Positions 488-52,148 of a DNA stretch of 64,000 nucleotides are shown piece by piece. Made by a program: the position numbers and the translations under genes. The stretch's first letter is position 1; the number at the start of each line of letters is the position of its first letter. The notes under the pieces were generated by a model that was given only the letters and a program-made list of their open reading frames with translations, was not told the DNA's origin and made no database searches. The stretch comes from Asterias amurensis (lineage: Eukaryota): contig NC_092652.1 of assembly GCF_032118995.1 (NCBI RefSeq), forward strand, positions 15,752,336 to 15,816,335, written 5' to 3'.

Positions 488-654
488 GAGAGATTACCTC
501 TTTCTCAAAAACTACGTTACTTTTTATAGAGGGAGCCGTTTCACACAATGTTTTATAACTATCATCATCTCTCCATTGCTCTTTACCAAGTAAGTTTTTT
601 TTATGCTAACAATTATTTTGAGTTATATTACCAACTGTGTCAAATGCCTTTAAA
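488..654 (+). mobile_element. MITE family A, 3-prime half copy
   Basis: cagagggagccgtttcacacaatg...ccaagtaag...atgctaacaattattttgag...gcctttaaa. Confidence 0.7.
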
Positions 655-1400
655 CGCAAAGCCAGGGGAAGTACAATTAACTATTTAAATGGCATCGCTC
701 AATTACTTCCCGAACAAGGAAGTACAAGTTCATTTTTTGATAGGTCACCTGTCTTGCACGGAAGCGTTAAAGGGACACTGTGAGAAGAAGGGAAGAGATA
801 GTAAAATAAATAGCAAAACACATGATGATTTCTCATAATTATGACTTTGTAAAAATCATAATTATGACTCAAGCAAATACGTCATAGTTTAATAGGTCAA
901 ATACAACAAATTTTTTGATTATTCATGTTTATCATAATTATATTTTGTCTTATTATTAAGTCGAAATTATGAGATGTAGGTTAGTTATTATGTATCAAAA
1001 CAAATTAAGTCCTCTTATTTTAAAATCCAAAAATCCTGGACAACGTGGAGGATAACGGGCATTTTATTTTGCACTGTTGTGTTACGTATGTGTTTGTGAC
1101 GTTTGGAACTGCATTATTCCACATAAATTTCGAATTTGTGAGGAATATAATATGACGACCAAAACCCACCACAGAAATTTGTTTGCTGCCATGGAACGTT
1201 TATCTGTTGAAATTGGTGGCTTCTTGCAGGTCCAGTCTAAGTATATATTAACAGCCTGAACATCTGACGTCACACTTCCGGGCTCGTGAATAACGCCACA
1301 GAGTGGCCCCATAGCCTAGGTCGATCCCCGTCCATGATCACCTTTCACCTACATTCATGGCACACGAAAATACGCAGTCAAATCCTACTTACAAATATTT

Positions 1401-1647
1401 GGTGCGTTCGATAAGCTTCTCTGGGTCGACCCGCAGAGCTCACTCGGGGGAGCCCCTGATGACAAGAGCTATCGAACGATCACACTCGCCCTCTCGCTGT
1501 GACGCCATGCACATCGGGTGGTCCACCCCACAAGCAGTGCACTGCTGGGGGATGGGGCTGACTCGGGTGAGCCCCTGGAAGTCAAAGCTATTCGAACGTA
1601 CCGGTGTGGCGGTTTCAGTCTTCCGCCGTAAGCCAAACGAACGCACC
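1401..1647. mobile_element. MITE with ggtgcgttcg / cgaacgcacc termini
   Basis: inverted termini; internal accggtgtggcggtttcagtcttccgccgt shared with 35071-35522. Confidence 0.5.
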
Positions 1648-1667
1648 TATTACATGCAAGTAGGCCT

Positions 1668-1730
1668 ACATGTACTGTACGTAGTACATGTACTGTAAGT
1701 AGTACATGTACTGTATGTAGTACATGTACG
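1668..1730. repeat. 20-bp tandem repeat x4 (gtagtacatgtactgtaNgt)
   Basis: direct reading. Confidence 0.8.
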
Positions 1731-1974
1731 CGACGAAATACACATGTGGACGCCATCATGCCCACGACCAAAAGTAAGCTTTCCATATCCGTGTTTTGAT
1801 TGGTCCGAGTTTATGTTTGTCAGCTGCAACCACATCACTAAATTGACCGATCTTCGTAAGATTAGATTAGATTCGATTTTTTTATTCCTAATGCTACTCT
1901 CACACTTGGGCGAGTATCTTGCGAATAAATTATGAATTTTTTAAATTCGCGATCAATTCGCCCAAAAGTTGCGA

Positions 1975-3030
1975 TTTGATAGTGAATATGTTCTCGGCCA
2001 TCCTTTAACCTCTCCTTACCAATATCTTACGAAAAATACGTACGCTTTACTAACAGTACCAATGGCTTACCAATGGCTTACCAAATGCTTACGCAAATCG
2101 ATGGCGAAGTACCGTCTTCACAACGTTCGCTGAATGTACGGAAGCGCTTCGTATTGCCGCTCTCACCGAATGGCGAATGTTCTTGCGAACATGAATATTT
2201 GAACATGAATATTTGAATTTGTCCAACATGGCGGTTGGATAGTGAATATTTTCAGCTCGGTCTCACCCCTCGATCGACCTCGGTCTGCCCACTCCTTACC
2301 AATATCTTACGAGTACATTACGAATGCTTACCAACGCTTGCCAATGCCTTTACGAACGTTGCAAACGCTTACGCACGCTTTACCAACGTTACCAATGCTT
2401 ACGAAAATCACGCCGAGTGACCGTCTTCGCAACATTCGCTGAAATTAACAAACCGGTTTGTAAATTGAGCGATCGACGTAAGGAGGTGGGGAATAATTTG
2501 TGAACGTTCCGAATTTGTTACCAACGCTTACGGAGACCCGGCGAATGCTGCGAAGTTTGAGCGATTGTCAAATATTTCCTTCCGATAGCACATTCGCTAG
2601 CATATTCGCCGTGTGAGAGCAGCATAAAGTGACCGATCTTCGTAAGGAGGTGGAGAATGACTTGTGAACGTAGTGACTTTGTGGCGAATGTTGATAAGTT
2701 TGAGCGAATGTTAAATATTTCCGTTCGTAAGCACATTCACTAGCATATTCTCCATAGTGTAAGAGTAGCATCATGCCGAGCAAGAAAATCACTTTCTCGA
2801 TTTGCACATTAAAATACAGTATTAAAAATAGCACAAAACATACATGAACCGTATACATTAAAACAGCAACAATAAATAATAAAAAAAGGAGGTGAAGAAT
2901 GACTTGTTAACGTAGTAGTGAATTTGTGGCGAATGTTACGAAGTTTGAGCGATTGTTAAATATTTCCGTTCGTCAGCACATTCGCTAGCATATTCTCCCT
3001 ATTGTGAGAGTAGCATTAATGAATGCCAAG
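1975..3030. repeat. Cluster of tandem repeats (2 x ~270 bp then 3 x ~165-180 bp) upstream of PARP4 promoter
   Basis: repeated tccttaccaatatcttacga...gaccgtcttc.caac.ttcgctgaa units and cgtaaggaggtgg.gaat.a.ttgtgaacgt...tcgctagcatattc units. Confidence 0.75.
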
Positions 3031-3583
3031 TGCAAGACTGCGAAACGCTTTTAGAACTTATTGGGATAGAGAAAGACATTATTTATACCTCTCGTAATAA
3101 TGAATAAATATAAATAATTCAAGGTATAATAAAATTACTTGTATTTGACGTATCAAAGTATAACTGATTTGGCAAGGGTAATAAACGTTAAGTGGGTCAA
3201 ATCCTGAATTATCTGCACAAAATTATACGGGTATTCGTGCACGACCTCGATATGAAAAGACCGATTTGTTTTCGTACAAAACGACGGATATGCTCTTCGT
3301 TTCAATTTACTGGTGCACTATTGTTTTTTTTTACTTTTCAAAAAGGCCGAAAAAGACTGAATTCCAGAAGCCCTTTTGACAAATTAAATATTCATAACGA
3401 GGTCACGCACGAATCCCCATGATTATTTTGCAGATAAAAAGGAACGGATGATGTGTGTGCTGCAGAATAGCCTGCATAATGACTGATACTTGTTCATATG
3501 ACTCTCTCTTCTCTCAATATCCCTTTAACGCTTCCGTGTACAAGACACGTGACCTATCGAAAGGTGTACTTTCGCTTTACGGG

Positions 3584-3591
3584 TATATAAA
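3584..3591 (+). promoter_or_regulatory. Candidate TATA box (TATATAAA) of PARP4-like gene
   Basis: gggTATATAAAgcag seen about 90 bp upstream of first in-frame ATG (3678) and first GTAAGT donor (3698). Confidence 0.4.
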
Positions 3592-3677
3592 GCAGAATGT
3601 CACCAGTTGCGCACTCAGCCGGCTGTTCAACATCAGACCAGTACACCTGTCCTTCAAGTGTACAATGAGCATTGAAA

Positions 3678-3697
3678 ATGAGTGATGCTGCAAACAG
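3678..3697 (+). CDS. PARP4: PARP4-like exon 1 (coding part, start codon)
   Basis: ATG in gaaaATGa context, donor cag|GTAAGT at 3698; 20 nt + exon2 79 nt keep frame: MSDAANSVWKWGDPAAPGFPEHLYDIAKSAAFQ; tiny overlapping uORF ATG at 3665. Confidence 0.4.
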
Positions 3698-3710
3698 GTA
3701 AGTAATGTAC

Positions 3711-4096
3711 TTAAAGGCATGGACACTATTGGTAATTGTCAGAGACCAGTCTTCTCACCCGGTGTATCTCAACAAATGCATAAAATAACAAACCTGTGAA
3801 AATTTGAGCTCGATTGGTCATCGGAGTTGGGAGAAAATTATGAAAGAAAAAAACACCCTTGTCACACGAAGTTGTGTGCTCTCAGATACTTGATTTCGAG
3901 ACCTCAAGTTCTAAATCTGAGGTCTCGAAATCAAATTTGTGGAAAATTACTTCTTTCTCGAAAACCACGTCACTTCAGAGGGAGCTGTTTCTCACAATGT
4001 TTTGTACTATCAACCTCTCCCCATTACTCTTAAACAATAAAGGTTTTATGCTAATAATTATTTTGAGTAACTACCAATAGTGTCCACTGCCTTAAT
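3711..4096 (+). mobile_element. MITE family A, full copy (in PARP4 intron 1)
   Basis: both TIRs present, flanked by TTAA contexts. Confidence 0.85.
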
Positions 4097-4099
4097 AAA

Positions 4100-9166: not shown

Positions 9167-9409
9167 GCAGCACTATATTGGTAATCACTCAAAATAATTA
9201 TTAGCATATAACCTTACTTGGGACGAGTAATGGGGAGAGGTTGATAATATATAACATAGTTAGAAACGGCTCCCTCTGAAGTGACATTTTCCACGTATTT
9301 GATTTCGAGACCTCAGATTTAGAATTTGAGGACTCGAAATCAACGATCTAAAAGAACACGACTTCGTGTGACAAGGGTGTATTTTCTTTCATTATTATCT
9401 CGCAACTTC
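9167..9409 (-). mobile_element. MITE family A, truncated copy
   Basis: TIR + internal hairpin, loses last third. Confidence 0.75.
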
Positions 9410-10015
9410 AATACAATACATACAATACAATAATACACTAATCTTTATTAGATCCCAAAAAAGGGTAATTCAAATGCTCGCATACAGTAAAACATTGACA
9501 CATTAAAAACATTTAAAAAACAGACAATGGCTATATACAATTACAAGAAAAAACACTAAAAAGCGATAAGAAAAATACCCGAGACTGGGCGATAAATTTA
9601 TAACCGAGCTGTGAGCTCGGTTACCGTTTCGGTTATGACGTCAGAAACAGTTTTTGGTTGGGGTCGCCAAAACGCACTCCTAGTTCAGTGGAATACTTTC
9701 TGTTTCACCGGATTGTTGGTTTTGCCTTGTGTGTCGGTTCTTGTTTTTTGGCGGCACTTGTGCCCTTGAGCAAAAACAAAAGAGTACGTTAACTGCGCAG
9801 TTATTTTGTCCTGGTGGGAGTTGGTCCAATATTGTGTAATTTACTGAACAAACACAAATCTACATCAAAGAAAAACCTATTTGTTGTCTAGGTGTTTTTG
9901 ATAACTGCGATTGTGCAAACGCATGTGTAAAAAAACAAAATGTCTTTTGCAAAATAATAAGAACCCATTGAGTTTTGTATAATATTTAGTTTCGATTTGT
10001 TATTTCTCAATTTTT

Positions 10016-10292
10016 AAAGGCAGTGGACACTATTGGTAGTTACTCAAAATAATTGTTAGCATAAAACCTTACTTGGTGAAGAGTAATGGGGAGAGGTTGA
10101 TGGTACAACACATTGTGAGAAACGGCTCCCTCTGAAGTGACATAGTTTTTGAGAAAGAAGTAATTTTCCACAAATTTGATTTCGAGACCTCAGATTTAGA
10201 ACTTGATGTCTCGAAATCAAACATCTAAACACACACAACTTCGTGTGACAAGAGTTTTTTCTTCTTTGACTATAGTGTCCAGTGTCTTTAAG
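10016..10292 (-). mobile_element. MITE family A copy with internal deletion
   Basis: both termini present. Confidence 0.8.
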
Positions 10293-10423
10293 TCGGGACA
10301 TATTATTGTGTCAGCAAAGGCAGGGTTGACAAGAAAACAAGGTCAAGCTTGTCCACACAAGGCCTCGGAAAAACACCCAATAGTTGCTCATGTGTAATCT
10401 TGTTCAAACATTTTACGATTTAG

Positions 10424-10564
10424 CAAGCTTTGGAGTCGGGTCTTCGAGATGGCCCTGCAATCTCACCTGAAGTTGCTCGCCTCGTGGAATACGTCTGGCG
10501 GGAGACCATTGGTGAGCTGCAGGAGGTGCTTGATGTTCCATACAGGGACATTGGACTCGGAAAA
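10424..10564 (+). CDS. PARP4: PARP4-like exon (PARP regulatory helical domain, ends DIGLGK)
   Basis: acceptor tttacgatttag|, donor aaa|gtgagt; QALESGLRDGPAISPEVARLVEYVWRETIGELQEVLDVPYRDIGLGK resembles end of PARP alpha-helical domain (PLGKLS motif). Confidence 0.6.
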
Positions 10565-11074
10565 GTGAGTTTCGACTTCAACGTAGCCTTGATCAAGGAT
10601 TTGGAGGATTTTGTCTAAAAACAAAATGTATAGATTGTTTTCATGTTTATTTTGTTTGCGCCGCGCTTTTCGTCCCAGCTACCTTCCAGCCCGAGCTGTG
10701 TACTTAGCAGTTCCATTGGCGCGTGCTCAGGTGAGCTGTATGCTTGTGTATAGACCTTCTCCTGTCGGCCTCCGCATGTGGAGAGTGGTTCCGCAGGATC
10801 GTTCCGAAAGACTTCCCATAGTCGATCTTTCGACTTCCAGCATGTGTTTTAGCATATCTGGGAACATTATGACTTATTCAACAGTTTTATTTATGTTCAA
10901 ATGTTGTTTAAAAACAACATGCACTTTAAAAAAATAAAGTGCATTTCATAATGTCGTCGGGCGGCATCAGTGTTTTTTAAAATGCAGTTAAATGTGAACC
11001 TGTTGAAAAACTATATCAAACGCCATTGTAGGCTTCTAACCAAAGTTTTTTATTGTCATTTATCTCATACGTAG

Positions 11075-11263
11075 GTTGAACAAGCAGAAGGTGTACTTTT
11101 GCAGATCAGAAAGTATCTGGATAATAAAGAGGATGGGGTGTCTTATGCAGGAGTACTGGAAAATCTAAACAGGGAGTTCTTTGAATTAATACCTCATAGA
11201 CCACAACATAAAGATTTCATTGATCACAAACGGACAATCGCCACCAAACGTGATCTGTGCCAG
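11075..11263 (+). CDS. PARP4: PARP4-like exon (PARP regulatory domain continuation)
   Basis: acgtag| acceptor, cag|gtaagt donor; VEQAEGVLLQIRKYLDNKEDGVSYAGVLENLNREFFELIPHR... Confidence 0.6.
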
Positions 11264-12021
11264 GTAAGTTTTGAACTCGTGTCATGGTGAAATGTCAAAA
11301 ACTCCCTTTAAATATGCATAAATTTGTAAGGTCAAATTCATTTTTTAATCCACCTTTTCGCCAGTTTGAACAGATATTGTAGTTCATTTCTGAATTTGAA
11401 CCAATCAATGTTATTTAACTTGACTATTTGGAAGGGGGCAAATTTCTTTTTTAATAGACTAATTTTGATGGCTGATGACGTCATTGTTTAAAATTGTCCC
11501 CTCTGAAGTTTACACCTTTTTAATGTGAGGTTAAAGACTTTACTTTTTTTATGAGGGGGGGGGGTGGCTCTATGTTTTGGAAAATGGGTTTATCACAAAA
11601 TTTACTTCAACAGGAGCCCCTTTTTTAATTGACATCCCTTGGATCAAACAATTTCTAAAATAATGATTGTAAAATATCGCTAAGTGGCTTCTAGTCACGA
11701 ACATTGACGTTAAATGTTTGTGAATGTTGAAATTATGAGACTTTATATCTTTTTAGGATATTTTTGAGGAAATCTGTAAAATTTGTTTACTGATGAGTTG
11801 TGGTTGAACACAAAAGAATAACACTAAATGTATTGGAAGCACTGACCTCCGAATCAATGTGCCGGCGCTCTCCCAACTATAGCTTTCAAGCCATTATGTT
11901 AGCGGTCTCCTGATTTTGGGGTGCCAATCAGAATCCATCTAGCCGTTTAGTGCTTAGTAGCCAGGGATCCCAAGTTTACGATACATGTGAATTAAGCATC
12001 AGTGAGCCAGGGGATCACCTT

Positions 12022-12380
12022 AAAGCCATTTTACACTTTCGGTACAGAAAAAAAAATCACAGATTTACAAATAATTTATAGGGTTTACAGAAGGTAATGG
12101 TGAAAGACTTCTCTTGAAATATTGTTCCATGAAATGCTTTACTTTTTGAGAAAACATTAAAACAATATCAATTCTCGATAGCGAGAATTACGGATTTATT
12201 TTAAACACATATGTCATGACACGGCGAAACGTGCGGAAACAAGGGTGGGTTTCCCGTTATTTCTCCCGACTCCGATGACCAATTGAGCCTAAATTTTCAC
12301 AGGTTTTTTTTTGTATAGTTCTGATACACGAAGTGTGGGCCTTAGACAATAGTGTTACCGAAAGTGTCCAATCGCTTTAA
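12022..12380 (+). mobile_element. MITE family B copy
   Basis: near-identical to 4100-4472. Confidence 0.7.
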
Positions 12381-12532
12381 GGGGATGCGACTTATTATTT
12401 CAGAAAAAAAACCTTGTGATTTTTGTATTTTACATGAAATACTCAATGCACTCAAAAGGTTTCACAGTATTTGCTTTCACTTTCAGTGCGATACTTCGGC
12501 AGACATCAAAATATATGTGTTTTGTATTACAG

Positions 12533-12687
12533 TTAATCAAAGATATAGTGAATGTAAGTGAGTCAACCGACTGGTCCCAACGCAGTAGTAGTCAAGCAAG
12601 GTATCACGCAATACAGTGTTTCCTTAGCTACCTACCTCCAAATCATCCAGAATTCACAAAGATCCGAGATTTCTTTATTGAGACAAG
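12533..12687 (+). CDS. PARP4: PARP4-like exon (LIKDIVNVSESTDW...FFIET)
   Basis: ttgtattacag| acceptor, ag|gtatgc donor, ends phase 2 matching next exon. Confidence 0.55.
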
Positions 12688-13155
12688 GTATGCATTTTTC
12701 CTTATGTTTGGGAATGCTATTTGTGTGTGTGGCCATATAACAAGCTTCCGTTACACGGACTCTTTGAATGCGAATCTTACGTTAGATTTTCACCTTTATT
12801 TACATTTTGTAGCGATAATTTGAATACATGATCTTTTCGTCAATTACTCGTTAATAATAATATATAAAAAAAGATTTAAATTTGGTTTGGTAAGTTACTT
12901 TTAGATGGCTGGAAGTAAAAATAGCCCGGAAGGTCATGTGATTGTTTGTACCACTTTTTGGTTAGAACAATCACGCGACCTTCGTTTTGTTTTAAAATGC
13001 TCAAAAACTACCAAATTTTATGACTTTTTTAGAGACTGTTCTTCTTCATTTCTAGAAGACCGTTGAGTTCATTTCTTAGTCTATTGTGTAGCCCAAATAG
13101 CCCAATTCGGCCGGTGTGTCCCTTTAAAGCCTTCATTCACCATTTTGGCTTGCAG

Positions 13156-13293
13156 TACGGGACCTCTCGAAATCAAGAGAATATTTGCCGCCACTCGTGG
13201 GATTGAAGAGGCTTCATTTGACGGGACCATCGGCAACAACCAACTCCTTTTCCATGGATCAGGACCAGCCACCCTCCTCGGAATTCTCTCAAG
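13156..13293 (+). CDS. PARP4: PARP4-like exon, PARP catalytic domain (H-G-S motif: LLFHGSGPATLLGILSRG)
   Basis: tttggcttgcag| acceptor, aag|gtgtgt donor; classic PARP catalytic NAD-binding H-G-S signature. Confidence 0.8.
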
Positions 13294-13826
13294 GTGTGTA
13301 AATTGAAAGCTTTCAACAAAGTGGGCGGACTTGTGGTGGGATGGGCGGAGGTTATGGATCGGATTTTTACCACTGACTTGATCCCTAAGATTGTCAAGGG
13401 CGAGCAGCTGGGGTTGGGTGGGGCCTGTGATGGAAAGGTGCTCCCCCAGCCCAGACATCCACAAACCACTGTGTTGCAGCATGTTGCAGTAACTGTGTGG
13501 ACATTCCTTTGTTACTAATACTTCACGAAAGTCATGTTCTTCGATTTGGTACAAAAACACTGTGAGGGCGTGTGATTTAGTACACATAGTGTTTCAAGTT
13601 CATCACACAGTAGCCTATTGATGTGGTGCTCGTGCACTGTATAGACTCACCGTGGTCGAATATAGGCGCAGTATTGTCAAGATACCCCACGAAAAATACA
13701 CTCGTAGAGCCCTCGAAAGGAAACCAAATCATGACCTTGCGCTCCTCTCGTGGAAAACAATACATACTAACCCTAACCCCAACTTGAATAATTGATTGCT
13801 ATGTGGACAATAATCTTTAATTTCAG

Positions 13827-13925
13827 GGGTTTGTTGTTACCGAAGATTGTTGTTGAAGAGTATGGCGGTTCTCGGTGTGATGTCGGGTTCCTTGGTTCAG
13901 GCATTTATTTTGCCGGTAGAGCATG
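13827..13925 (+). CDS. PARP4: PARP4-like exon, PARP catalytic (GSGIYFA motif)
   Basis: aatttcag| acceptor; GLLLPKIVVEEYGGSRCDVGFLGSGIYFAGRA; donor tg|gtagg. Confidence 0.8.
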
Positions 13926-15730: not shown

Positions 15731-16015
15731 GTTAAAGACACTCGACACTATTGGTAATTGTCAAAGAACAGTCTTTTCACTTGGTGTATCTCAACATACC
15801 TGTGAAAATTTGAGCTCAATTGGTCGTCGAAGTTGCAAGACAACAATAGAAATTTAAAAAACACCATCGGCCCACGATGGGTGCTTTAAGATGCTTGATT
15901 TCGAGACCACAAAATCTAATTCCGAGGTCTCGAAAACAAATTCGTGGAAAATTACTTCTTTCTCAAAAACGACATCACTCCAGAGGGAGCCGTTTCTCAC
16001 AATATATTATACTAT
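15731..16015 (+). mobile_element. MITE family A copy, 5-prime part (split by LTR retrotransposon insertion)
   Basis: continues at 23094 after the 7078-bp insertion; junction tatactat|LTR. Confidence 0.85.
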
Positions 16016-16962
16016 TGTAACGAAATGGTACCGCGCGGTGGCGCTCCAGGCTTAGCGCGAGAGTAGGCGCCCTTAGCGCGCGAAAAGGCGGTTTGGCGCG
16101 GCGCTGGCTGCCGCGGGGCATTTTGGGAAGCACGCTGCTGCCTCGTGCGTGGGGAGTGCGTAGCGGGCAGTTGCAGACTGGACAGCGGATGGTACAGACG
16201 TGTTTTCAATAGTGGTGTTTAACAATTGGCGGGGAGGATTAAGGCGGCGACGTGACTAGCGTGTTCACGTGTCGGGAGTAGTAGCAGGGCTAGCGTGGGG
16301 AGTTTTGGGAGTTGCGGTGCGTGCTGCTGACAGTTGTGTAACCGAGGGGTAGGTTTCATTGGATTATTTTCTGTGTTATTTATGGCAAGTTGGACGTAGA
16401 GACGTGCGATAATCCACTCCCGTAAGGAGGTCACATTGCATTGTATTGTTTGCTCTGGAGTCCGAGATTCTATCAGGCCCTTAAGGCATATTCTATTGTG
16501 TATTGTATTGGTTGCTCGGAGTTCGGGATTTTATCAGGCCCTAAAGGCAGCTTTGGTTTTACTGTAAATGCAGTTCAGTTACTTTAAGTTAGTTCCAGTT
16601 ACCTTAAGGGATTTTCCAGTTGCTTAAGGGATTACCAGTTACTTAAGGGATTTCGGTGACCTTAAGTTTAGTCAGTTGCCTTAAGGGACCATTTCTGGCC
16701 TTAAGTAAAGGAAGATTGCGTAGTTGGAATCAGGAATTACTGTGCTTTCGTAGGGATAATAAATAAAACGGATCAATAGTCAATCAGTAACTTGTCTCAG
16801 CCCTCACTCCTTGGAAGTCAACAGTTTCTTACAGTTTCTAGACCCCTTCCCCCACGTTTTTATTACATGCGGCGATATACGGTTGCCTAACGACCTCACC
16901 CCAAGTGCCAGCAGGACTACCGCTCGTCCTGTGCTGGTGACCACCAGACGGGAATCGCTACA
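16016..16962 (+). repeat. 5-prime LTR (947 bp)
   Basis: identical to 22147-23093 except about 3 substitutions (near 16062, 16364, 16573); contains tandem 20-bp CCTTAAGGGAT-type subrepeats. Confidence 0.9.
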
Positions 16963-16980
16963 TTGGTGTCAGAAGTGGGA
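16963..16980 (+). other. Putative primer binding site (TTGGTGTCAGAAGTGGGA)
   Basis: begins TGG immediately 3-prime of the 5-prime LTR. Confidence 0.4.
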
Positions 16981-17035
16981 TTTGCTGTAATTTTTGTGGG
17001 AGACAGGGTTATTCTAGAGCTGTATAACGGACTGC

Positions 17036-18292
17036 ATGATGGACCGGATGGATTCAAGGGCAATGGAGGAGGAGTTGGAGGTGCTTCGGATGGAGGTTCA
17101 TACAGCCGAAAATATAGTCGAGGATGCTGTCGAGGCCAGGCGGGTAATGGAGGAGGAGTTGCGCAGGATGCGTATGCAACACGCAGAGATGGAAGAGAGA
17201 CATAAGTCGGGCAGGGTCCTTGGAGCCCCTACGCCAGACATGTTTTTCAGCACTCCGAGTCCTGTGGTTTCCGGTACACTTAGGGACACCTCAGGAGCAG
17301 GATTCACACCTGCAAACACAGTTGCAGACACAGAATTCACAAGAGAACAGGAGGTGGGACGTAAGGAGGATGCGACTACTACCAGCCCCAAGGTGGACAG
17401 ACCTCGAAAACCGAACATTTGCCCGGATCGTTTCAATGGGAAGGTTCCTTGGAATGACTACAAGGCTCATTTCCGAGCTTGCTGCGTGGCGAATGCCTGG
17501 AGTGACGAGCAGGCGGTCGTGTTTCTCGCTGCCAGCCTCCAAGGGCAAGCGTTAAAGGTGCTGAGATGCCAGCCGGAGGGGAAGAAGTCGTCGCTTAAGG
17601 ACTTGATGCTCCGTCTGGACCAGAGATTTGGCCCGGGCCAACAAGCAGATTTCCATATGATGGAGGTGAGGCACCGTCGGCAGGGCGAAGTGGAAACACT
17701 GCAGGAGCTAGGGACGAGCATAAGGGAGCTATCTGCATTGGCCTACCCGGAATTCTCCGACGATAGCCGGGAACGGTTGGCTAAGGGACATTTCATGGAT
17801 GCGGTCAAGGACCGGGAGATTAGGGAAGGGATATTCCGGGTAAGCCCAACCTCTTTAGATGACGCCATTAGGGCCGCTCTGCAGACAGAAAGTTTCCTTC
17901 GGACAGAGGAACATAGGACCAATGGGAGGGGGAGAAAGTTTGCAAGGGTTGTTGCAGGAGGAGAGGACGAGGTCTCTCTGCAGGGTCTACAAGGAGAGTT
18001 AAGGGCCACTCAGGATCGCATGTCTAAGGCTTTGGGTGGAATACATGCCATGTTGGAGGACCTGTCACGTTCTAAGGGGGATTACCAGTCGGCAGTTCCA
18101 CGGGGAAGGTCAAGTGCAGACTATGCCTGTTACAACTGTGGCAAAAAGGGTCACTTCGCGAGGGAATGTTCTGAGCCGAGAAGGGAAAGGAGCTGGCAGT
18201 CGGGAAACGCTACCCAGCCAACCGTGGGGCCCAATGGAAGGCTGGAAATGGAGGAAGGACACAAAGAAACTTCCAAGGAGGGCCAGTGCTAG
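17036..18292 (+). CDS. gag: Gag polyprotein (418 aa) with capsid-like region and CCHC zinc knuckle
   Basis: ORF track; CYNCGKKGHFARECSE zinc knuckle; retrotransposon-gag-like FNGKVPWNDYKAHFRACCVANAWSDEQ; N-terminal Glu/Arg-rich coiled-coil-like stretch. Confidence 0.85.
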   Translation: MMDRMDSRAMEEELEVLRMEVHTAENIVEDAVEARRVMEEELRRMRMQHAEMEERHKSGRVLGAPTPDMFFSTPSPVVSGTLRDTSGAGFTPANTVADTEFTREQEVGRKEDATTTSPKVDRPRKPNICPDRFNGKVPWNDYKAHFRACCVANAWSDEQAVVFLAASLQGQALKVLRCQPEGKKSSLKDLMLRLDQRFGPGQQADFHMMEVRHRRQGEVETLQELGTSIRELSALAYPEFSDDSRERLAKGHFMDAVKDREIREGIFRVSPTSLDDAIRAALQTESFLRTEEHRTNGRGRKFARVVAGGEDEVSLQGLQGELRATQDRMSKALGGIHAMLEDLSRSKGDYQSAVPRGRSSADYACYNCGKKGHFARECSEPRRERSWQSGNATQPTVGPNGRLEMEEGHKETSKEGQC

Positions 18293-20484
18293 GAATGTAT
18301 AACCAAGGGATAACGCTCTCAGGGAAGAGTTCGAATATGGCAGGGCTATATGTGACCGCTCAGGTACGAGGAGTAAAAACACAGATGTTAATCGACACAG
18401 GTGCGTCAAACACGGTGCTGTCAGCAGCAGTTTACTATCAAATGGCTCCGGAGGGGAGACCTTCACTGAATACGAGGGGAGCGAAGTTGTACGGGGCGGA
18501 TGGTAGCTCCATAGAGACTATTGGCGGAGCATTGATGGAGATCCAGGTTGGCAAGACAACCCTCCCGGTACATGTGATATTTGCAAAATTGGATTTGGAG
18601 GGGATATTAGGAATGGACTTTCTCCTGCCTACAAATGGACGACTGGACTTCAAGGACATGGTGTTGACCCTGAATGGAGAACGAATAAGGTGCCAGAACG
18701 GTCAGGGTGCGAACGTTTGTGCACAGTGTGGAATGGAAGGACCGGACCTGGGTGGCCAGTTGCGCAAGTCAGGAGGAAGTGAAGGGATAGTGCCTGTACC
18801 GGATAGCGATGAAGGAGATAGTGGCCCTGCAGGAAAGGCTGAGGAAGCCAAAGCTGATTTGCGCGCCGTGGGTGTACTACCCCAAATAACCAAGGCCGAC
18901 TGGAGGGAGGCACAGCTTAGGGAAAGCTCTATGGAGTGGGTCATCAAGGCTAAGGAGGCCGAGGTACCCAGGCCAGACTGGGAGACAGTGTCAGTAACAT
19001 CCAGTGCAAGCAAGAACTATTGGCTACGATGGGAGCAGCTACTTGTTCGCGACGGCGTACTACAGCGTCGGTGGGAGTCTCACAATGGAAAGCAAACGCA
19101 GTGGCAAACCTTGGTACCTCAGGAGCTCCGAGGAGAGATATTGCATGAGCTCCACGCAGGAAGGCTGAGTGGACACTTAGGAACCAAGCGAACAATGGCG
19201 AAGGTGCACGGCAAGTTCTATTGGCAAGGGATGGCTGCAGACATAAGGTCCTTCATCCGAGAGTGTGATGTGTGTGCTAGGAGGAAGTCCCCCAACAAAA
19301 AGAGAAGGGCCCCTTTACAGCAACACCTAGTGGGAATTCCGATGGAGCGAGTAGCGATGGACATTACAGGACCCTTCCCAGTGACGAAGAATGGCAATCG
19401 TTACATACTTGTGATTGGGGACTACTTCAGTAAGTGGTTCGAAGCCTACCCCATTCCAGATGAGAAGGCAGAGACTGTTGCGGACAAGTTCGTCAAGGAG
19501 TTCGTGTGCAGGTTCGGCGTGCCTAAAACACTGCATACCGACCAAGGGAGAAATTTCGAGTCGAGGCTCATGGCCGAGGTGTGCAGAACGCTTGGGATTG
19601 AAAAGACCAGGACCACCCCCTACAACCCCAAGTCTGACGGAATGGTTGAGAGGTTTAACCGCACCCTGGTTAATATCGTAGCCATGCTGATGAAAGAACA
19701 AGCAAACAATAAGGACTGGGACGAGGAGTTGCCTTATGCGACGGCTGCTTACCGCAGCACACCACAAGAGTCCACTGGGGAAACCCCAAACATGCTGATG
19801 CTCGGTAGGGAAGTCTCTCTGCCCCTTGATTTGACAGTGGAGGAGCCCCCTGCAGGCGACGCAGATGGGAAGGAGGAGCGGGACTATGCCCAAGTGGTGC
19901 GTGAGAGAATGCAGGGCGCACATGAAAGGGCTAGAGCACGCTCGAAGAAAAGTGCAAGACGTCAGAAACAAAACTATGACAAGGGGACCAGCGAGGGCAA
20001 CTTTGCTGAAGGCACGTTCGCCTGGTTGTTCAACCCAGCGAAGAAGAAGGGGGTGTCACCCAAGTTGATGTGTAGGTGGGAAGGACCCTACCTTGTAGTA
20101 AACAGGCTGTCGGACGTAACCTTAAGGATACAAAGGAAGCCTGGAGGGAAAACGAAGGTTGTTCACTGTGACCGCCTTAAGCCGTATCAAGGTGCACCCT
20201 TACAGCCTTGGATGTCAGATGCAGACGAAGGGACGCAGGCCCTGCAGGGGCAACCCGCAGGAGATATCCCGGTGGATGATGCATCCCAGGTGGAAGTGAT
20301 TAATAGCCCGATGCCAGCGGGCCAGGTAGAACCAGAGACACCTGAAGGTGACCGGGAATCCTCTGAAGATATGGGCCATGCGGATCCTGCTCAGGTATCT
20401 AGACCCTTAGACATGACACCGTTGCCTGCACAGGCGAGACGGAATCCGTTGCGCCAGCGGAGGCCGCCACAGCGGTATCTGTAA
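18286..20484 (+). CDS. pol: Pol (732 aa) = aspartic protease + integrase only; no reverse transcriptase/RNase H
   Basis: -1 frame relative to gag with 7-nt overlap; LIDTGASNTV and GILGMDFL protease motifs; H-x3-H...C-x2-C zinc finger (HELHAGRLSGH...CDVCARRK); integrase D (VAMDITGPFP), D (LHTDQGRNFES), E (MVERFNRTL); GPY/F tail (WEGPYLVVNRL); no YxDD motif anywhere. Confidence 0.85.
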   Translation: MLGMYNQGITLSGKSSNMAGLYVTAQVRGVKTQMLIDTGASNTVLSAAVYYQMAPEGRPSLNTRGAKLYGADGSSIETIGGALMEIQVGKTTLPVHVIFAKLDLEGILGMDFLLPTNGRLDFKDMVLTLNGERIRCQNGQGANVCAQCGMEGPDLGGQLRKSGGSEGIVPVPDSDEGDSGPAGKAEEAKADLRAVGVLPQITKADWREAQLRESSMEWVIKAKEAEVPRPDWETVSVTSSASKNYWLRWEQLLVRDGVLQRRWESHNGKQTQWQTLVPQELRGEILHELHAGRLSGHLGTKRTMAKVHGKFYWQGMAADIRSFIRECDVCARRKSPNKKRRAPLQQHLVGIPMERVAMDITGPFPVTKNGNRYILVIGDYFSKWFEAYPIPDEKAETVADKFVKEFVCRFGVPKTLHTDQGRNFESRLMAEVCRTLGIEKTRTTPYNPKSDGMVERFNRTLVNIVAMLMKEQANNKDWDEELPYATAAYRSTPQESTGETPNMLMLGREVSLPLDLTVEEPPAGDADGKEERDYAQVVRERMQGAHERARARSKKSARRQKQNYDKGTSEGNFAEGTFAWLFNPAKKKGVSPKLMCRWEGPYLVVNRLSDVTLRIQRKPGGKTKVVHCDRLKPYQGAPLQPWMSDADEGTQALQGQPAGDIPVDDASQVEVINSPMPAGQVEPETPEGDRESSEDMGHADPAQVSRPLDMTPLPAQARRNPLRQRRPPQRYL

Positions 20485-20631
20485 TTAATTAGCTCTGGAG
20501 TATTGGGGGGATCGATTGTATGGTACTAGGACAACAAAGGCGTAACGTAGGAGTAGCAAACCAGTATGGGGGTAACTGCAGTGAAGTAACTGTTGCTTTG
20601 TTTGTTCTTTTTCTTTACAGTATAAAGGAGG

Positions 20632-21651
20632 ATGGAGGACCAAGAGCCAGGATGGAAGAGACCGAAGGACTGGGATAAGATGAAGCTATACGCATGTTCG
20701 GAGTGTGACGACACCTTCGTGAGCAAGAAGAGTCTTGAGACCCATCTGGGGACTCACACCACCAAGAAGAAGATCCTGTACTTCTGCAAGAGGTGTGACA
20801 GGAGATATACAAGGAAAGACAACCTGAAGGTTCACTATACCAACCACCACCCTGCAGGGATGCAGGACCTGGATACGCTGTACCCAGAAACGGAGGAAGA
20901 ACGGAGAGCTGCTAGTTCCCCAGGAGACGATGTGGATGTTCCGGGTGATTCCCCTGCCCCCTCGGGACGCAAGAGGAAGGAAACGGAGGTGACCAATCCC
21001 AGACCCAGAAAGGAGTCCAGGAAGAGGAGAGAGTGCACCGAGAAAACCAGGGAGCCACAGAAGGAAGAGGAATCGGCTGAGGAGACGCAGCTCCCCTCAA
21101 CTCCTGGGAGGAACCGGGTGATACAGGAAACGGCGGAACTGTCCTTGTCGCCAGCGTCAGTTTCCTTACTGGAAGAGGCGGGTCCTCGGCGCCGGGTAGT
21201 CCATGGAGGGAAACCTCGGGGTATGATTTCGATGATGAAGGATGCCCAGGAAGAGGGTACTGACGAGGAAGGAGTGGAGGACAACAACGACGCTCCTTTG
21301 TCCATTAATCTGGGGCGAGCACTAAAGGGAAGCACCCTACGATACAACGAAGGAGACCTGCAACAACACGTCTTTCAACCAGCTCAGGGTGTTCGACACG
21401 GGCTGGGACAAGCCGCACCGGTAGAGGAACCACCACAGGCGAGAGTGTGCCGGATCAATCGAGGCAACCCGGGGTGGCGAAAAGCAGTGCCACTTGATAC
21501 TGCTGACCTGGAGGTGATGATGGCTGGAAACGTCCGTAAGGTGAGAGAAGTCAACACAAGAAGCCAGTTTCAGAATGGCCTCAAGATCTCCGAAGAGGTC
21601 GTCGAGCGGACATACGACGTGCAGTTCACGGCAGGGTTTATCCTCAAGTAG
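20632..21651 (+). CDS. ORF3 (339 aa) C2H2 zinc-finger protein in env position of the LTR element
   Basis: two C2H2 fingers (YACSECDDTFVSKKSLETHLGTH; YFCKRCDRRYTRKDNLKVHYTNHH), then acidic/Ser-Pro-rich low complexity and a C-terminal ~100 aa unique region; intact ORF. Confidence 0.7.
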   Translation: MEDQEPGWKRPKDWDKMKLYACSECDDTFVSKKSLETHLGTHTTKKKILYFCKRCDRRYTRKDNLKVHYTNHHPAGMQDLDTLYPETEEERRAASSPGDDVDVPGDSPAPSGRKRKETEVTNPRPRKESRKRRECTEKTREPQKEEESAEETQLPSTPGRNRVIQETAELSLSPASVSLLEEAGPRRRVVHGGKPRGMISMMKDAQEEGTDEEGVEDNNDAPLSINLGRALKGSTLRYNEGDLQQHVFQPAQGVRHGLGQAAPVEEPPQARVCRINRGNPGWRKAVPLDTADLEVMMAGNVRKVREVNTRSQFQNGLKISEEVVERTYDVQFTAGFILK

Positions 21652-22134
21652 TTGTAGTCCACTTTAGGCTCGTTTTTACTAAAGCGTTACTTGTTTATAA
21701 CCTTGTTTTCTTTCAGTATAAAAGTTGTCTAAGAGAGTATATTTTGATAACAGATCTTGCCTTTGTAATCTTGTGTAATTCCCTTAAGGATTAGGTTACG
21801 AATTTGGATTGTATAACGTGATTGTGTTATGATTGGATTTGATTTGTATAAACTCCCTTAAGGAGACATTGTGATTTTTGAAATGTGTTTTACTTAAAGT
21901 TCCCTTTAGGAGCATTAGCAGACTCTTGCCTTAAAGTGTGTAAACCTCCCTTAAGGAGGCATTGTGATAACTTATTGTTTAAGCTCCCTTAAGGGGCCCC
22001 TTTGTTACTTAAAGGTGTCCGGCAGGTGCATTGTGGTGTATAAAATAACTATTTCTCTGTATAAATTTGTAAGCACCTTGAGGTACATTTCGTTTTTAGG
22101 GTATCAGTTTTACGGACCGGGTGGTCCTAACTTA

Positions 22135-22146
22135 AGTGGGGGGCTG
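22135..22146 (+). other. Putative polypurine tract (AAGTGGGGGGCT)
   Basis: purine-rich run directly upstream of 3-prime LTR. Confidence 0.45.
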
Positions 22147-23093
22147 TGTAACGAAATGGTACCGCGCGGTGGCGCTCCAGGCTTAGCGCGAGGGTAGGCG
22201 CCCTTAGCGCGCGAAAAGGCGGTTTGGCGCGGCGCTGGCTGCCGCGGGGCATTTTGGGAAGCACGCTGCTGCCTCGTGCGTGGGGAGTGCGTAGCGGGCA
22301 GTTGCAGACTGGACAGCGGATGGTACAGACGTGTTTTCAATAGTGGTGTTTAACAATTGGCGGGGAGGATTAAGGCGGCGACGTGACTAGCGTGTTCACG
22401 TGTCGGGAGTAGTAGCAGGGCTAGCGTGGGGAGTTTTGGGAGTTGCGGTGCGTGCTGCTGACAGTTGTGTAACCGAGGGGTAGGTTTTATTGGATTATTT
22501 TCTGTGTTATTTATGGCAAGTTGGACGTAGAGACGTGCGATAATCCACTCCCGTAAGGAGGTCACATTGCATTGTATTGTTTGCTCTGGAGTCCGAGATT
22601 CTATCAGGCCCTTAAGGCATATTCTATTGTGTATTGTATTGGTTGCTCGGAGTTCGGGATTTTATCAGGCCCTAAAGGCAGCTTTGGTTTTACTGTAAAT
22701 GCGGTTCAGTTACTTTAAGTTAGTTCCAGTTACCTTAAGGGATTTTCCAGTTGCTTAAGGGATTACCAGTTACTTAAGGGATTTCGGTGACCTTAAGTTT
22801 AGTCAGTTGCCTTAAGGGACCATTTCTGGCCTTAAGTAAAGGAAGATTGCGTAGTTGGAATCAGGAATTACTGTGCTTTCGTAGGGATAATAAATAAAAC
22901 GGATCAATAGTCAATCAGTAACTTGTCTCAGCCCTCACTCCTTGGAAGTCAACAGTTTCTTACAGTTTCTAGACCCCTTCCCCCACGTTTTTATTACATG
23001 CGGCGATATACGGTTGCCTAACGACCTCACCCCAAGTGCCAGCAGGACTACCGCTCGTCCTGTGCTGGTGACCACCAGACGGGAATCGCTACA
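22147..23093 (+). repeat. 3-prime LTR (947 bp)
   Basis: direct repeat of 16016-16962, starts TGTAACG ends GCTACA. Confidence 0.9.
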
Positions 23094-23193
23094 CTATTAA
23101 CAGTTCCCCGTTACTCATTACCAAGCAAGGTTTTATGCTAACACTTATTTTGAGTAGTTAATACTGATAATTTCACTGTCCACTGCCTTTAAA
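23094..23193 (+). mobile_element. MITE family A copy, 3-prime part (after LTR element)
   Basis: ctattaacagttccccgttactcattaccaagcaaggttttatgctaacacttattttgagtag...cactgcctttaaa. Confidence 0.85.
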
Positions 23194-33249: not shown

Positions 33250-34110
33250 ACTGATGGCAATCCTGGTTGATCCCGGTAGAATCGCACATAATCCAACCAG
33301 ACTCCCAGTTAAAACCAGTAGTAAACAAACCAAGGGATTCAGGTTAATATCATCTGGATCCCGCAGTTTAATCCAACCGGAATCGTGGTTTATTCCAGCA
33401 AAATCCAAGTTATTCCAACCAGAATCACAGTTAAAAAACAGTAAACTAACCAAGTGGGATTCGGGATTCACCTGGATCCCCAGTTAATCCAACCGGAATC
33501 CTGGTTTATTCCAGCGGAATCCAAGTTATTCCAACCAGAATCCCAGTTAAAACCAGTAAACTAAACAAGTAGGATTCGGGATTCACCTGGATCCCCAGTT
33601 AATCCAACCGGAATCCTGGTTTATTCCAGCGGAATCCAAGTTATTCCAACCAGAATCCCAGTTAAAACTAGTAAACTAACCAAGTGGGATTCGGGATTCA
33701 TCTGGATCCCCAGTTAAGCCAGCCGGAATCTCTGTTCATCCAACCGAAAACACGGTTGATCATGGTTAATCCAAAGGGATCCCACTAGGAAATTGGACGG
33801 AATCCTAGTTTAATTCAGCCGAATTCCTTGTTTATCCCAGCGGAATCCCAGTTAATCCAACCGGAACCCCTGTTAGAATCAGTCAACTTACCAACTGGGA
33901 TTCAGGTTAAATTAATCCGGATAATCCAACTGAAAGTCTCAGTCCTCCAACCGAAATCCCGGCTGATCCAATTCCAGTTAAATCCAATGGAATCCCACCT
34001 GGAGTTTGGATGGAATGGTAGTTAATCCATCCGTAACCCCGGTTAAAACTATTAACCCAACCAACCAGGATTCCTGTTAAATTCATCTGTAACCCCAGAA
34101 AAATTCAACC
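33250..34110. repeat. Satellite array, ~120-bp unit x3 perfect plus degenerate flanks
   Basis: unit cagttaatccaaccggaatcctggtttattccagcggaatccaagttattccaaccagaatcccagttaaaaccagtaaactaa.caagt.ggattcgggattcacctggatcccc at 33380, 33500, 33620. Confidence 0.8.
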
Positions 34111-40014: not shown

Positions 40015-40383
40015 AAAAGGCAATGGACACTATCAATGGTTATTGTCAAAGACCATTCTCCTCACTTGGTGTATCTCATCATATGCATAAAATAACAAAC
40101 CTGTGAAAATTTGAGCTCAATCGGTCGTTGAAGTTGCGAGATAACTATGAAAGAAAAAAAACACCCTTTTCACACGAAGTTGTGTGCTTTCATTATGCTT
40201 GATTTCGAAATCTATTTCTTAGGCTCGAAATCAAATTTGTGGAAAATTACTTCTTTCTCGAAAACTACGAGCCATTTCTCACAATGTTTTATACTAGCAA
40301 CAGCTCCCCATGACTCGTTACCAAGTAAGGTTTTATGCTAATAATTATTATGATTAATAACCAATAGTGTCCACTGCCTTTAA
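40015..40383 (+). mobile_element. MITE family A full copy
   Basis: both TIRs, some divergence. Confidence 0.8.
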
Positions 40384-40999
40384 TGAAATGTGCACGCGTT
40401 GGCTGCGAGTCGTGTGCAGCTAGCATGCACTTTTCTGTTGTCACCAATCACATGGACAAAATTGGCAATCGTCAAAGATCAATTTTCGCACTTCTTGTGA
40501 CCAATAATAATACATAATTGTAGTAACCAGCCTTTGTAAATTTAGGCTCAAGCGGTCAATGCACGAGAAATTTTGTGAACAAAACGTATTTTCAATTTTT
40601 GTCTCGCGAGATCTGAACTATTGTTTTAATCATTATACAATTAGAAAAAGTATGGCATTTAGGCAAACCATTGTCACGGGAAGTTTGCTCATGACAATTC
40701 TTGTAGCTTGTTTGATGTAAGCAGATAGAATAGGTTTTTTTTATTTCTGTGAAAACATGTTTTTCTTTCTTTCTGAAATATACGCATAGATTTATTGCAA
40801 CTCCATATCTTAGAAAAAATAGCTATTATATTCAATGAGTCTTTATTTAAGTTTAAAGTTATCGATACGCCATCATGGACTTGACTTCGGAATAGTTTCA
40901 TTTTGTTTAGTTAGAGAATACATCCGAAATAGCAAAAATAAATAAATAAACAAATACCCGTAAGTATTTGTATTTCATATCAATGTAGACAATTAATTT

Positions 41000-41560
41000 G
41001 CCCTTATGGGGCATCCTTACTGTAGATCGATGTAGACAAATTGCCAAAGTTTGGCATAATGTATATCAAAGTAGACATTGCCCTTATGGGGCATACTTTC
41101 TATCGATGTAGACAAATTGCCAAAGGTCGGCACAATGTATATCAAATGGGGCGTACTGTGTATCAATGTAGACAAACTGCCAAAGTTCGGCATGCATATG
41201 TATATCAATGTAGACAAATTGCCCTATTGGGGCGTATGCAAGTCAATGTAGACAAGTTGCCCAAGTTCGGGCATAATGTGGACAAGTTGCCCAAGTTCGG
41301 GCATAATGTGGACAAGTTGCCCAAGTTCGGGCATAATGTGGACAAGTTGCCCAAGTTCGGGCATAATGTGGACAAGTTGCCCAAGTTCGGGCATAATTGT
41401 GATATCAGTGTAGACAAGTTGCCCAAGTTGGGCCTTATACCAATGTGGACAGGTTGCCCATCCAATTTGGGCATACGATATCAATGTAGACAAATGGGTC
41501 AATACCCAAGTGGTGCATAATATTATGTATATCGATGTAAACAAATACTAATAGTGGGGA
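41000..41560. repeat. Minisatellite; core of 5 perfect 30-bp units (GTGGACAAGTTGCCCAAGTTCGGGCATAAT) flanked by 40-60-bp variants
   Basis: 41248-41397 perfect copies. Confidence 0.85.
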
Positions 41561-41839
41561 ATTATGTCATTTCGGGCAAGTTGCAGGGAAAATACCAATC
41601 TGGACAAATTGCTCAAGCAGGGTGTCAATTAATACTATCGTATCAGCAGAACAAACAACGATCACAGGCTTGAAACAAAGTCTTTAGTCTACAGGCTATT
41701 TGAATAATTCTTATATTTTAGAGGCTGAATTGTTGTGTTTTGAATATTATTGTGATGATTATATTGTGTATGGAATACATTTTTTTAGTATAAATATATG
41801 TTGTTATTCTTGACTTGAACAATCCAACGGATTAATAAT

Positions 41840-46908: not shown

Positions 46909-47243
46909 TTAAAGACAATGAACACTTTTGGTAACTGTCGAAGACCAGTCTTCTTACTTAGTGTATCTCAACATTATGCATAAAATTACAAACCTGTGAA
47001 AATTTGAGCTCGATTGGTCGTCGAACTTGCGATCGCGAGAGAATAATGAAAGAAAAATCTAACTCTGAGGTCTCGAAATCAAGTTCGTGGAAAATTACTT
47101 CTTTCTCGAAAACAAAGTCACTTCAGGGAGCCGTTTCTCACAATGTTTTATACTATCAACCTCTCCCCATTACTCGTTACCAAGTAAGGTTTTATGCTAA
47201 TAATTATTTTGAGTAGTTACCAATAGTGTCCACTGCCTTTAAG
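46909..47243 (+). mobile_element. MITE family A copy (internal deletion)
   Basis: both TIRs. Confidence 0.8.
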
Positions 47244-51772: not shown

Positions 51773-52148
51773 GTGGACACTATTGGTAATTGTCAAAGAC
51801 TAGCCTTCACAGTTGGTGTATCTCAACATATGCATAAAATAACAAACCTGTGAAGATTTGAGCTCAATCGGTCATCGAAGTTGCGAGATAATAATGAAAG
51901 ACAAAAGACCCTTGTCACACGAAGTTGTGTGCGTTTAGATGGTTGATTTCGAGACCTCAAGTTCTAAATCTGAGGTCTCGAAATCGAATTCGTGGAAAAT
52001 TACTTCTTTCTCGAAAACTATGGCACTTCAGAGGGAGCCGTTTCTCACAATGTTTTATACCATCAACCTCTCCCATTACTCGCACCAAGAAAGGTTTTAT
52101 GCCGATAATTATTTTGAGTAATTACCAATAGTGTCCACTGCCTTTAAA
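51773..52148 (+). mobile_element. MITE family A full copy
   Basis: both TIRs. Confidence 0.85.

Follow-up and report, generated by a model that had tools for sequence, protein, structure and literature searches.

A young gypsy-type retrotransposon of Asterias amurensis without reverse transcriptase or RNase H: a probable deletion derivative of an echinoderm family with a zinc-finger ORF3

A 64,000-nt stretch of the genome of the sea star Asterias amurensis (contig NC_092652.1 of assembly GCF_032118995.1, forward-strand positions 15,752,336 to 15,816,335; "the window" below, with position 1 as its first letter) contains a complete long terminal repeat (LTR) retrotransposon at 16016-23093 (7,078 bp; 16012-23097 including its target site duplications, TSDs). 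It encodes a Gag protein, a Pol in which aspartic protease (PR) runs through a linker directly into integrase (IN), and a third open reading frame (ORF3) with C2H2 zinc fingers, and it has neither reverse transcriptase (RT) nor RNase H (RH). Relatives whose RT and RNase H sequence reaches right up to the PR-IN junction identify the window element as derived, by one internal deletion step, from a conventional gypsy element. Overall, this is probably a young copy of a conventional echinoderm Ty3/gypsy family, an ordinary and possibly single-copy non-autonomous derivative whose reading frames are open because it is young. The full form of that family, as pieced together from its sequenced relatives, would be LTR / gag / PR-RT-RNaseH-IN / ORF3(C2H2) / LTR.

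RT and RNase H are missing from the element in all six frames. No RVT or RNase H family was matched by Pol in Pfam at E≤1. When the Pol proteins of five autonomous relatives were compared with the whole window by tblastn at E≤10, solely their PR and IN parts aligned; for one of these (P0008), aa 3-136 and 718-1226 match the window and nothing between them does. Ten alternative-frame ORFs, forward and reverse, were also without Pfam matches. The initial annotation of the window, made from the sequence alone, had reported this absence and proposed that it be checked against Pfam. It had added that no other forward ORF of at least 60 aa was available to hold the missing domains; six such ORFs do in fact exist in overlapping frames (80, 111, 88, 88, 67, and 77 aa), but none is RT-like. 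Because its Pol has no RT or RNase H, the window copy is non-autonomous, and the earlier statement that it is unable to reverse-transcribe itself holds.

What is left of the coding sequence is intact (Table 1). The gag, pol, and ORF3 frames occupy 4.5 of the 5.2 kb of the internal region and are the sole plus-strand ORFs of more than 180 aa in the window. As first described, they comprise a 418-aa Gag with a CCHC knuckle (Pfam zf-CCHC, E=3.7e-7), a 732-aa Pol in the -1 frame that is open across the junction from protease to the HHCC, DDE, and GPY/F parts of integrase, and an uninterrupted ORF3; the zf-CCHC, Integrase_H2C2, rve, and Integrase_p58_C matches all exceed the Pfam gathering scores. 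Pol is likewise in the -1 frame in relatives L008 and L009. The pol frame of the window element is open upstream to at least 18181, and a stretch of more than 100 nt (18181-18292) is open in both the gag and the pol frame. By-eye inspection of this overlap revealed no canonical slippery heptamer for -1 frameshifting (X XXY YYZ) that lies in phase.

The break falls in a 5-nt microhomology, TGTGC. Its RT side is seen in a marine-metagenome contig (L002) and in a locus of Asterias rubens chromosome LR699101.1 with the gene LOC117295600 (L010), both 93-94% identical in DNA sequence to the window element across the LTR, gag, the integrase C-terminus, and ORF3. Where the window switches to QCGMEG, these two read NGERIRCQNGQGANVCA and then RVIVEETVEVP...; in protein they run ...LTLNGERIRCQNGQGANVCA-RVIVEETVEVPPAHEALV... 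through the PR-RT spacer to the first RT motifs (...SPWAANVVLVKK), and the window reads ...LTLNGERIRCQNGQGANVCA-QCGMEGPDLGG.... The RNase H side is seen in L007 (GCA_014845345.1), which has RT and RNase H remnants and is 81.5% identical in nucleotides and 85% in amino acids over the integrase N-terminus. Its RNase H-side sequence is ...HRAGKAHQNADSLSRRPCS-QCGMGE, with NADSLSRRPCS ending just before QCGMGE, or in a longer reading ...IIHRAGKAHQNADSLSRRPCS-QCGMGEWDTS..., continuing into integrase. Aligned as DNA, the 5' side of the break is ...AACGTT TGTGC GCGTGTG..., the 3' side is ...GACCA TGTTC ACAGTGCGG..., and the window is ...AACGTT TGTGC ACAGTGTGG..., with the switch inside the TGTGC. An origin of the PR-IN fusion by reverse transcription of a spliced RNA was considered and rejected by inference from the alignment with L007, in which an AG acceptor is missing wherever in the microhomology the junction is placed.

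The extent of the loss can be read from the autonomous protein P0004: the PR part of the window Pol corresponds to its aa 1-115, and the IN part begins to match at about aa 698. Residues ~116-697 are missing, about 580 codons or 1.75 kb, in a block that starts 8 residues past the protease domain and extends as far as the linker between RNase H and integrase. Save for this one internal gap, with its definable breakpoints, the window element is collinear with its RT-bearing relatives, and with ~1.75 kb gone relative to P0004 the parent element would have been ~8.8 kb. The linker of ~100 aa originally noted between protease and integrase is present, but it is not foreign: it consists of the native acidic RNase H-to-integrase linker and an integrase N-terminal extension, the latter 85% identical, over aa 195-345, to that of an RNase H-bearing relative (P0090).

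Internal deletion is recurrent in the family of the window element, since a differently deleted derivative is found in A. rubens and in several contigs. In this gag-PR-RT-IN patchwork (L002, L010, and protein P0286), gag is fused with the PR end, and the N-terminus of RT with the C-terminus of IN, in deletions that ignore domain boundaries. It is present at A. rubens L010 6200-12495 and in L002, L003, and L004, in metagenomic or read-set contigs from several samples, and in some copies it is a continuous ORF (P0286). The ORF3 of the patchwork elements in L002-L004 has an ~80-bp insertion and a frameshift, and a solo LTR lies near the patchwork element in L010 (3376-4328).

The history of the window copy would then begin with a single microhomology-mediated deletion that removed the RT-RNase H block, most probably during reverse transcription, and the TGTGC may be the trace of a reverse-transcriptase template switch or of a microhomology-mediated deletion. 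As the deletion is in frame, Pol reads protease-linker-integrase. Such a copy would be transcribed from its 5' LTR, and its Gag and Gag-PR-IN (the latter by -1 frameshifting) could assemble into particles and process themselves. Synthesis of cDNA at the shared primer binding site (PBS) and polypurine tract (PPT) would need RT/RNase H co-packaged from full-length siblings, and integration could be carried out by either integrase, its own or that of a sibling. The element has kept every one of its cis elements (LTR ends, PBS, and PPT), along with intact Gag, protease, integrase, and ORF3.

The insertion is very young. The LTRs are identical at 944 of 947 positions (99.7%), with mismatches exactly at positions 47, 342, and 557, and CTAT is found at both flanks; the approximate count of three differences given at the outset was exact. 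Near-identical LTRs and a TSD prove recent integration, but not that the RNA template already lacked RT. The initial claim of recent transposition of an RT-less element can thus be kept for the integration and not for the mobilization of an RT-less RNA; the deletion could have taken place during the reverse transcription that made the window copy, which would then have been defective as soon as it was inserted, or later in the genome. The intact frames are similarly limited as evidence. The suggestion that they reflect coding capacity under selection has not been borne out: in a neutral simulation at the LTR-derived per-copy divergence of 1.5/947, gag, pol, and ORF3 all remained open in 73% of replicates, and a random deletion has a 1/3 chance of being in frame. 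For these reasons the open frames say little about selection; their most likely cause is the youth of the copy, not selection acting on its RT-less form. Exact-protein look-ups of the window Pol and Gag found no record.

It is possible, though a good deal less probable than an ordinary deletion derivative, that the window copy belongs to an established semi-autonomous lineage, in which Gag-PR-IN(+ORF3) elements are repeatedly generated and amplified while borrowing RT/RNase H. The rationale would be that the proteins kept (Gag, protease, integrase, and ORF3) work preferentially in cis or in their own particles, for which the mouse intracisternal A-particle (IAP) element I-delta-1 offers a precedent (PMC6466679). 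The TSD, the closely matching LTRs, and the intact cis elements and ORFs are consistent with this, and so is the existence of a second such element in another sea star. The top database match to the window Pol, Patiria miniata LOC119729953 (P0001; 60% identity, 96% coverage), also lacks RT and RNase H, and is the only protein without RT of the 21 with protease and integrase Pfam domains among the matches listed. The element that encodes it (L001 9220-16093, in JADOBP010000014.1) is complete, with LTRs identical at 720/720 positions, the TSD ATAC, and an intact 347-aa ORF3. Its gag and pol are in one frame and form one Gag-PR-IN ORF of 1,216 aa, free of introns and frameshifts.

The architecture of the Patiria element is the same as that of the window element, but the junction is different. 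It reads ...NGERIKCVD-RHRAGESHQNADSLSHRP... (junction sequence GTGTGTTGACAGACATCGGGCTGG), and on P0004 the missing residues are aa 107-678, against aa 116-697 for the window. GQGxxxCA, kept by the window element, is absent from the Patiria one, which has the HRAG...NADSLS that the window element has lost. One ancestral deletion common to both was considered and rejected on this opposite retention of the GQGANVCA and HRAG..NADSLSRRPCS segments; because the junctions differ, the two RT losses are independent. A second LTR element adjoins the RT-less one in Patiria (L001 16111-22400), with direct repeats that are 99-100% identical and ~5.2 kb apart, and with the same 18-nt PBS on the opposite strand (21260-21277).

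Two more open PR-IN ORFs without RT/RNase H come from marine metagenome assemblies and belong to other gypsy families, and also speak for a semi-autonomous way of life. P0130 (L011 501-1679) has the junction ...RCSSSAEEP-VSEE... and corresponds to P0007 minus ~133-723, with breakpoints close against the end of PR on one side and the beginning of the IN linker on the other; P0024 retains the PR-RT spacer. In three of the four RT-less events, the left breakpoint is 2-10 residues past the protease and the right one within ~25 residues of the QCG motif, so that breakpoints cluster post-PR and pre-IN. Behind this clustering may lie a structural hotspot at which template jumps occur, or selection that keeps the PR-IN polyprotein functional; alternatively it may be a matter of ascertainment, as only open frames get called and noticed.

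A number of observations make an established lineage doubtful. Each RT-less form was met once, P0001, P0130, and P0024 all being single-member clusters, and differing junctions indicate separate events rather than a single lineage. In young copies, chance alone is expected to yield open frames and an in-frame junction, and the initial annotation and gene callers alike are biased toward noticing open frames only. The junction 25-mer of the window element (AACGTTTGTGCACAGTGTGGAATGG) had no match in the Joint Genome Institute (JGI) metagenome contigs, which would count against an amplified form, but this collection is unlikely to contain sea-star DNA and the scan is uninformative for that reason. 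From the independent in-frame RT/RH losses, recurrent semi-autonomous PR-IN derivatives are possible, and unproven. A broader and somewhat more tentative idea is that in-frame excision of precisely RT-RNase H, with the accessory ORF left intact, is a recurrent, favoured route by which gypsy elements of marine invertebrates become polymerase-stealing "semi-autonomous" parasites with their own particle, protease, and integrase. If so, breakpoints would cluster in at least three independent events because a functional PR-IN polyprotein that can be cleaved is selected for, or because template jumps are guided by an RNA structure.

Several points weigh against regarding the window copy as an ordinary, youthful derivative. 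Only partial RT-bearing relatives were recovered, with no intact autonomous master of >90% identity from the same genome, the source genome itself being unsearched, and the evidence for the RT side and the RNase H side is drawn from two different, partial, and partly degraded relatives. The post-PR/pre-IN clustering of independent in-frame losses (Patiria, P0130, and more loosely P0024) is a hint that the PR-IN form may be a favoured one and not an accident. The initial annotation would have counted it as a refutation if all genomic copies proved to be this single locus, with a simple internal deletion relative to an autonomous master; of the two, the simple deletion is now evident and the single locus is a possibility.

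A full-length autonomous element might instead have inserted here and lost RT/RNase H afterwards, by microhomology-mediated deletion in the genome (replication slippage or end joining), but this is rather unlikely. A 5-nt microhomology is equally typical of genomic deletions, and the LTRs and TSD do not date the deletion relative to the insertion. The insertion is however very young, with its three LTR differences, and little time has been available. Template switching by reverse transcriptase is moreover a well-known source of large internal deletions, as in retroviruses, although the data do not separate the two. The novel Gag-PR-IN element type first proposed can hardly be maintained, either as an ancestral form that never had RT or as a Ginger-like DNA transposon with a gypsy-like integrase: solely the missing RT/RH speaks for it, and it is refuted by close relatives that preserve RT and RNase H sequence right up to the junction and have a conventional Gag / PR-RT-RH-IN / ORF3 organization from which the window copy differs by one deletion. 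The direct LTRs, PBS, and PPT, the lack of terminal inverted repeats, and the native RNase H-IN linker also count against it. A collapsed full-length element produced by the assembler is just as improbable, with no specific support, since the two sides of the break share only 5 nt, too short for such a collapse, and comparable deletions are seen in independent assemblies.

The third ORF ties the window element to its autonomous relatives. Its two zinc fingers, of the C2H2 type, are at aa 20-72; the middle of the protein is disordered, the C-terminal ~45 aa are conserved, and ELSLSPxSxSL and GGKPxGM motifs are present. An AlphaFold (AF2) model is poor (pLDDT 47.7, pTM 0.20); it points to a pair of fingers, an extended disordered part and, at the C-terminus, a small helix with a beta-hairpin. 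Homologues are invariably located 3' of a gypsy integrase: in Patiria miniata (L001 13782-14825), in metagenomic contigs L002-L006, and in the Asterias amurensis annotation. Among the relatives, L008 (ORF3 at 9940-11025) is a full-length autonomous element. Its LTR starts are identical and separated by 8,762 bp, and it has gag, a PR-RT-RH-IN of 1,288 aa, and an ORF3 of 361 aa whose entire length can be aligned with the family profile (hhalign probability 98.7%, E=2.9e-16). In the sea urchin Strongylocentrotus purpuratus, an element near LOC115925941 has a continuous PR-RT-RH-IN followed by a zinc-finger ORF, and in L012, from the same species, ORF3 is at ~9400-10250. The autonomous ORF3-bearing element of L012 is flanked by 3.4-kb direct repeats that are 99.8% identical (617-4040 and 10502-13922), either an unusually long LTR or a tandem arrangement of elements. 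A related family, L009, has no ORF3.

Taken over this range, ORF3 is an ancestral accessory gene of this echinoderm gypsy clade, shared by members that are autonomous and members that are not, in sea stars as well as sea urchin. Comparison of the window element with the A. rubens copy gave dN/dS (ratio of nonsynonymous to synonymous substitution rates) values of 0.19-0.31 for ORF3, 0.30 for gag, and 0.86 for the poorly conserved integrase tail, in a divergence that may be older than the RT deletion; for ORF3 they point to purifying selection. An exhaustive HMMER search with ORF3 (1.8 billion representatives) found only a handful of full-length family members. Beyond P0122 and P0123, known from before, these were the candidates P0145-P0147, P0247, and P0255, and the remainder were generic poly-zinc-finger proteins. 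No account of this ORF3 was found in the literature searched, and a C2H2 ORF3 appears not to have been described before. It is a candidate for an element-encoded nucleic-acid-binding or regulatory factor.

Table 1. Features of the retrotransposon in the window (window coordinates)
Feature	Position	Strand	Description
5' TSD	16012..16015	+	CTAT; matches the 4 nt at 23094-23097
5' LTR	16016..16962	+	947 bp, TGTAAC...GCTACA
PBS	16964..16981	+	TGGTGTCAGAAGTGGGAT; 18 nt, 1 nt past the 5' LTR
gag	17036..18292	+	418 aa; CCHC zinc knuckle at aa 365-378
pol	18286..20484	+	732 aa; -1 frame relative to gag
Aspartic protease domain	18352..18624	+	gag-asp_proteas, aa 23-113, E=9.5e-11; DTGA at aa 37
RT/RNase H deletion junction	18718..18723	+	microhomology TGTGC; protein ...GQGANVCA-QCGMEG...
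Integrase, overall	19114..20184	+	Pfam domains
Integrase HHCC zinc finger	19114-19290	+	Integrase_H2C2, aa 277-335, E=3.9e-20
Integrase DDE core	19339-19629	+	rve, aa 352-448, E=8.4e-20
Integrase GPY/F C-terminal module	20083-20184	+	Integrase_p58_C, aa 600-633, E=1.3e-12
ORF3	20632..21651	+	339 aa; zf-C2H2
PPT	22134..22146	+	AAGTGGGGGGCTG; abuts the 3' LTR
3' LTR	22147..23093	+	947 bp; pairs with the 5' LTR
3' TSD	23094..23097	+	CTAT; matches the 4 nt at 16012-16015

The element has nearly all of the marks of Ty3/gypsy: direct LTRs with TG...CA termini and no terminal inverted repeats, a 4-bp TSD, PBS, PPT, an HHCC/DDE/GPY-F integrase, and a CCHC Gag. The order PR-RT-RNaseH-IN is departed from, PR being followed by IN, only because RT and RNase H have been deleted. 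The same PBS 18-mer, in an equivalent location, is found in the Patiria element and in the autonomous relative L009, which is from another sample; it is probably the complement of the 3' end of a tRNA-Leu. A similar PPT is carried by the Patiria element. Within the LTR there are 3-4 tandem copies of a 19-20-bp unit (CAGTTACTTAAGGGATTAC) at 16576-16653, which recur in the 3' LTR and are possibly a repeated regulatory motif.

The insertion target was one copy of a repeat resembling a short interspersed element (SINE). In uninterrupted paralogues at other places in the window the sequence is TATACTATCAAC and CTAT occurs once, so that the empty site can be reconstructed. The SINE-like family is plentiful in the window, with copies 60-93% identical; the host copy is split into 15793-16015 and 23090-23160, and others are at ~3788-4099, 10013-10263, 40269-40386, 47058-47245, 51841-52150, 52528-52778, and 59171-59421. 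It is also present at the A. rubens locus (L010, 16472-16840) at about 88% identity. Other repeats in the window include a pair of 627-nt inverted repeats (41837-42463 and 45557-46183) that are 97% complementary with ~3.1 kb between them; further inverted repeats are nested within the pair (42008-42397/45056-45445), no ORF of more than 180 aa is enclosed, and the whole may be a foldback or long-terminal-inverted-repeat DNA transposon. There are also two tandem arrays, one of ~5 copies of a 115-bp unit (33318-33874) and one of ~6 copies of a 30-bp unit (AATGTGGACAAGTTGCCCAAGTTCGGGCAT; 41215-41427).

Among known systems, the closest in structure are the autonomous echinoderm Ty3/gypsy elements (Metaviridae), such as L008 and the S. 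purpuratus element near LOC115925941. They share with the window element LTRs, a 4-bp TSD, PBS, PPT, a CCHC Gag, a -1-frame pol, an aspartic protease, an HHCC/DDE/GPY-F integrase with an RRNPxRxRRxPxRY tail, and the two-finger ORF3. The difference is the ~580 codons of PR-RT spacer, RT, and RNase H, without which the window Pol is PR-linker-IN. Ginger DNA transposons likewise have a gypsy-type integrase without RT, but they end in terminal inverted repeats and lack gag as well as a PBS and a PPT (PMC2836005); the direct LTRs, gag, PBS, PPT, and RT-bearing ancestry of the window element set it apart from them.

In its mode of action, the window copy would by analogy resemble known non-autonomous LTR elements with partial coding capacity. 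Mouse IAP I-delta-1 has an internal deletion of ~1.9 kb that leaves an open fusion frame, and is non-autonomous, relying on the proteins of full-length elements; it is multi-copy and highly active, and its gag-pol fusion protein promotes its own retrotransposition in cis (PMC6466679). The window element is similar in having an open fusion frame left by an internal deletion and in being non-autonomous. The IAP fusion is however of gag to pol, whereas here PR is fused to IN with all of RT/RH lost, in an element known from sequence alone. In wheat, RLG_Quinta and RLG_Sabrina have LTR termini, PBS, and PPT that match those of an autonomous partner, and encode Gag only, with no IN or RT; as lineages they are old and abundant and have had an evolutionary history of their own (PMC11302176). 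Like them the window element keeps some ORFs and has no RT, but it additionally keeps PR and IN, and its status as a lineage is only possible. Large retrotransposon derivatives (LARDs) and terminal-repeat retrotransposons in miniature (TRIMs) are also LTR elements unable to reverse-transcribe themselves, but they have no coding capacity, while the window element has three intact ORFs.

The locus can be regarded as a textbook case of the birth of a non-autonomous LTR element through a single microhomology-mediated deletion, still pristine. If the RT-less form were found to have been amplified, it would be an element that keeps its integrase and protease and outsources reverse transcription, the opposite of what is usual in plants, where Gag is retained and all of the enzymes are lost, and it would reveal which Pol functions must be supplied in cis.

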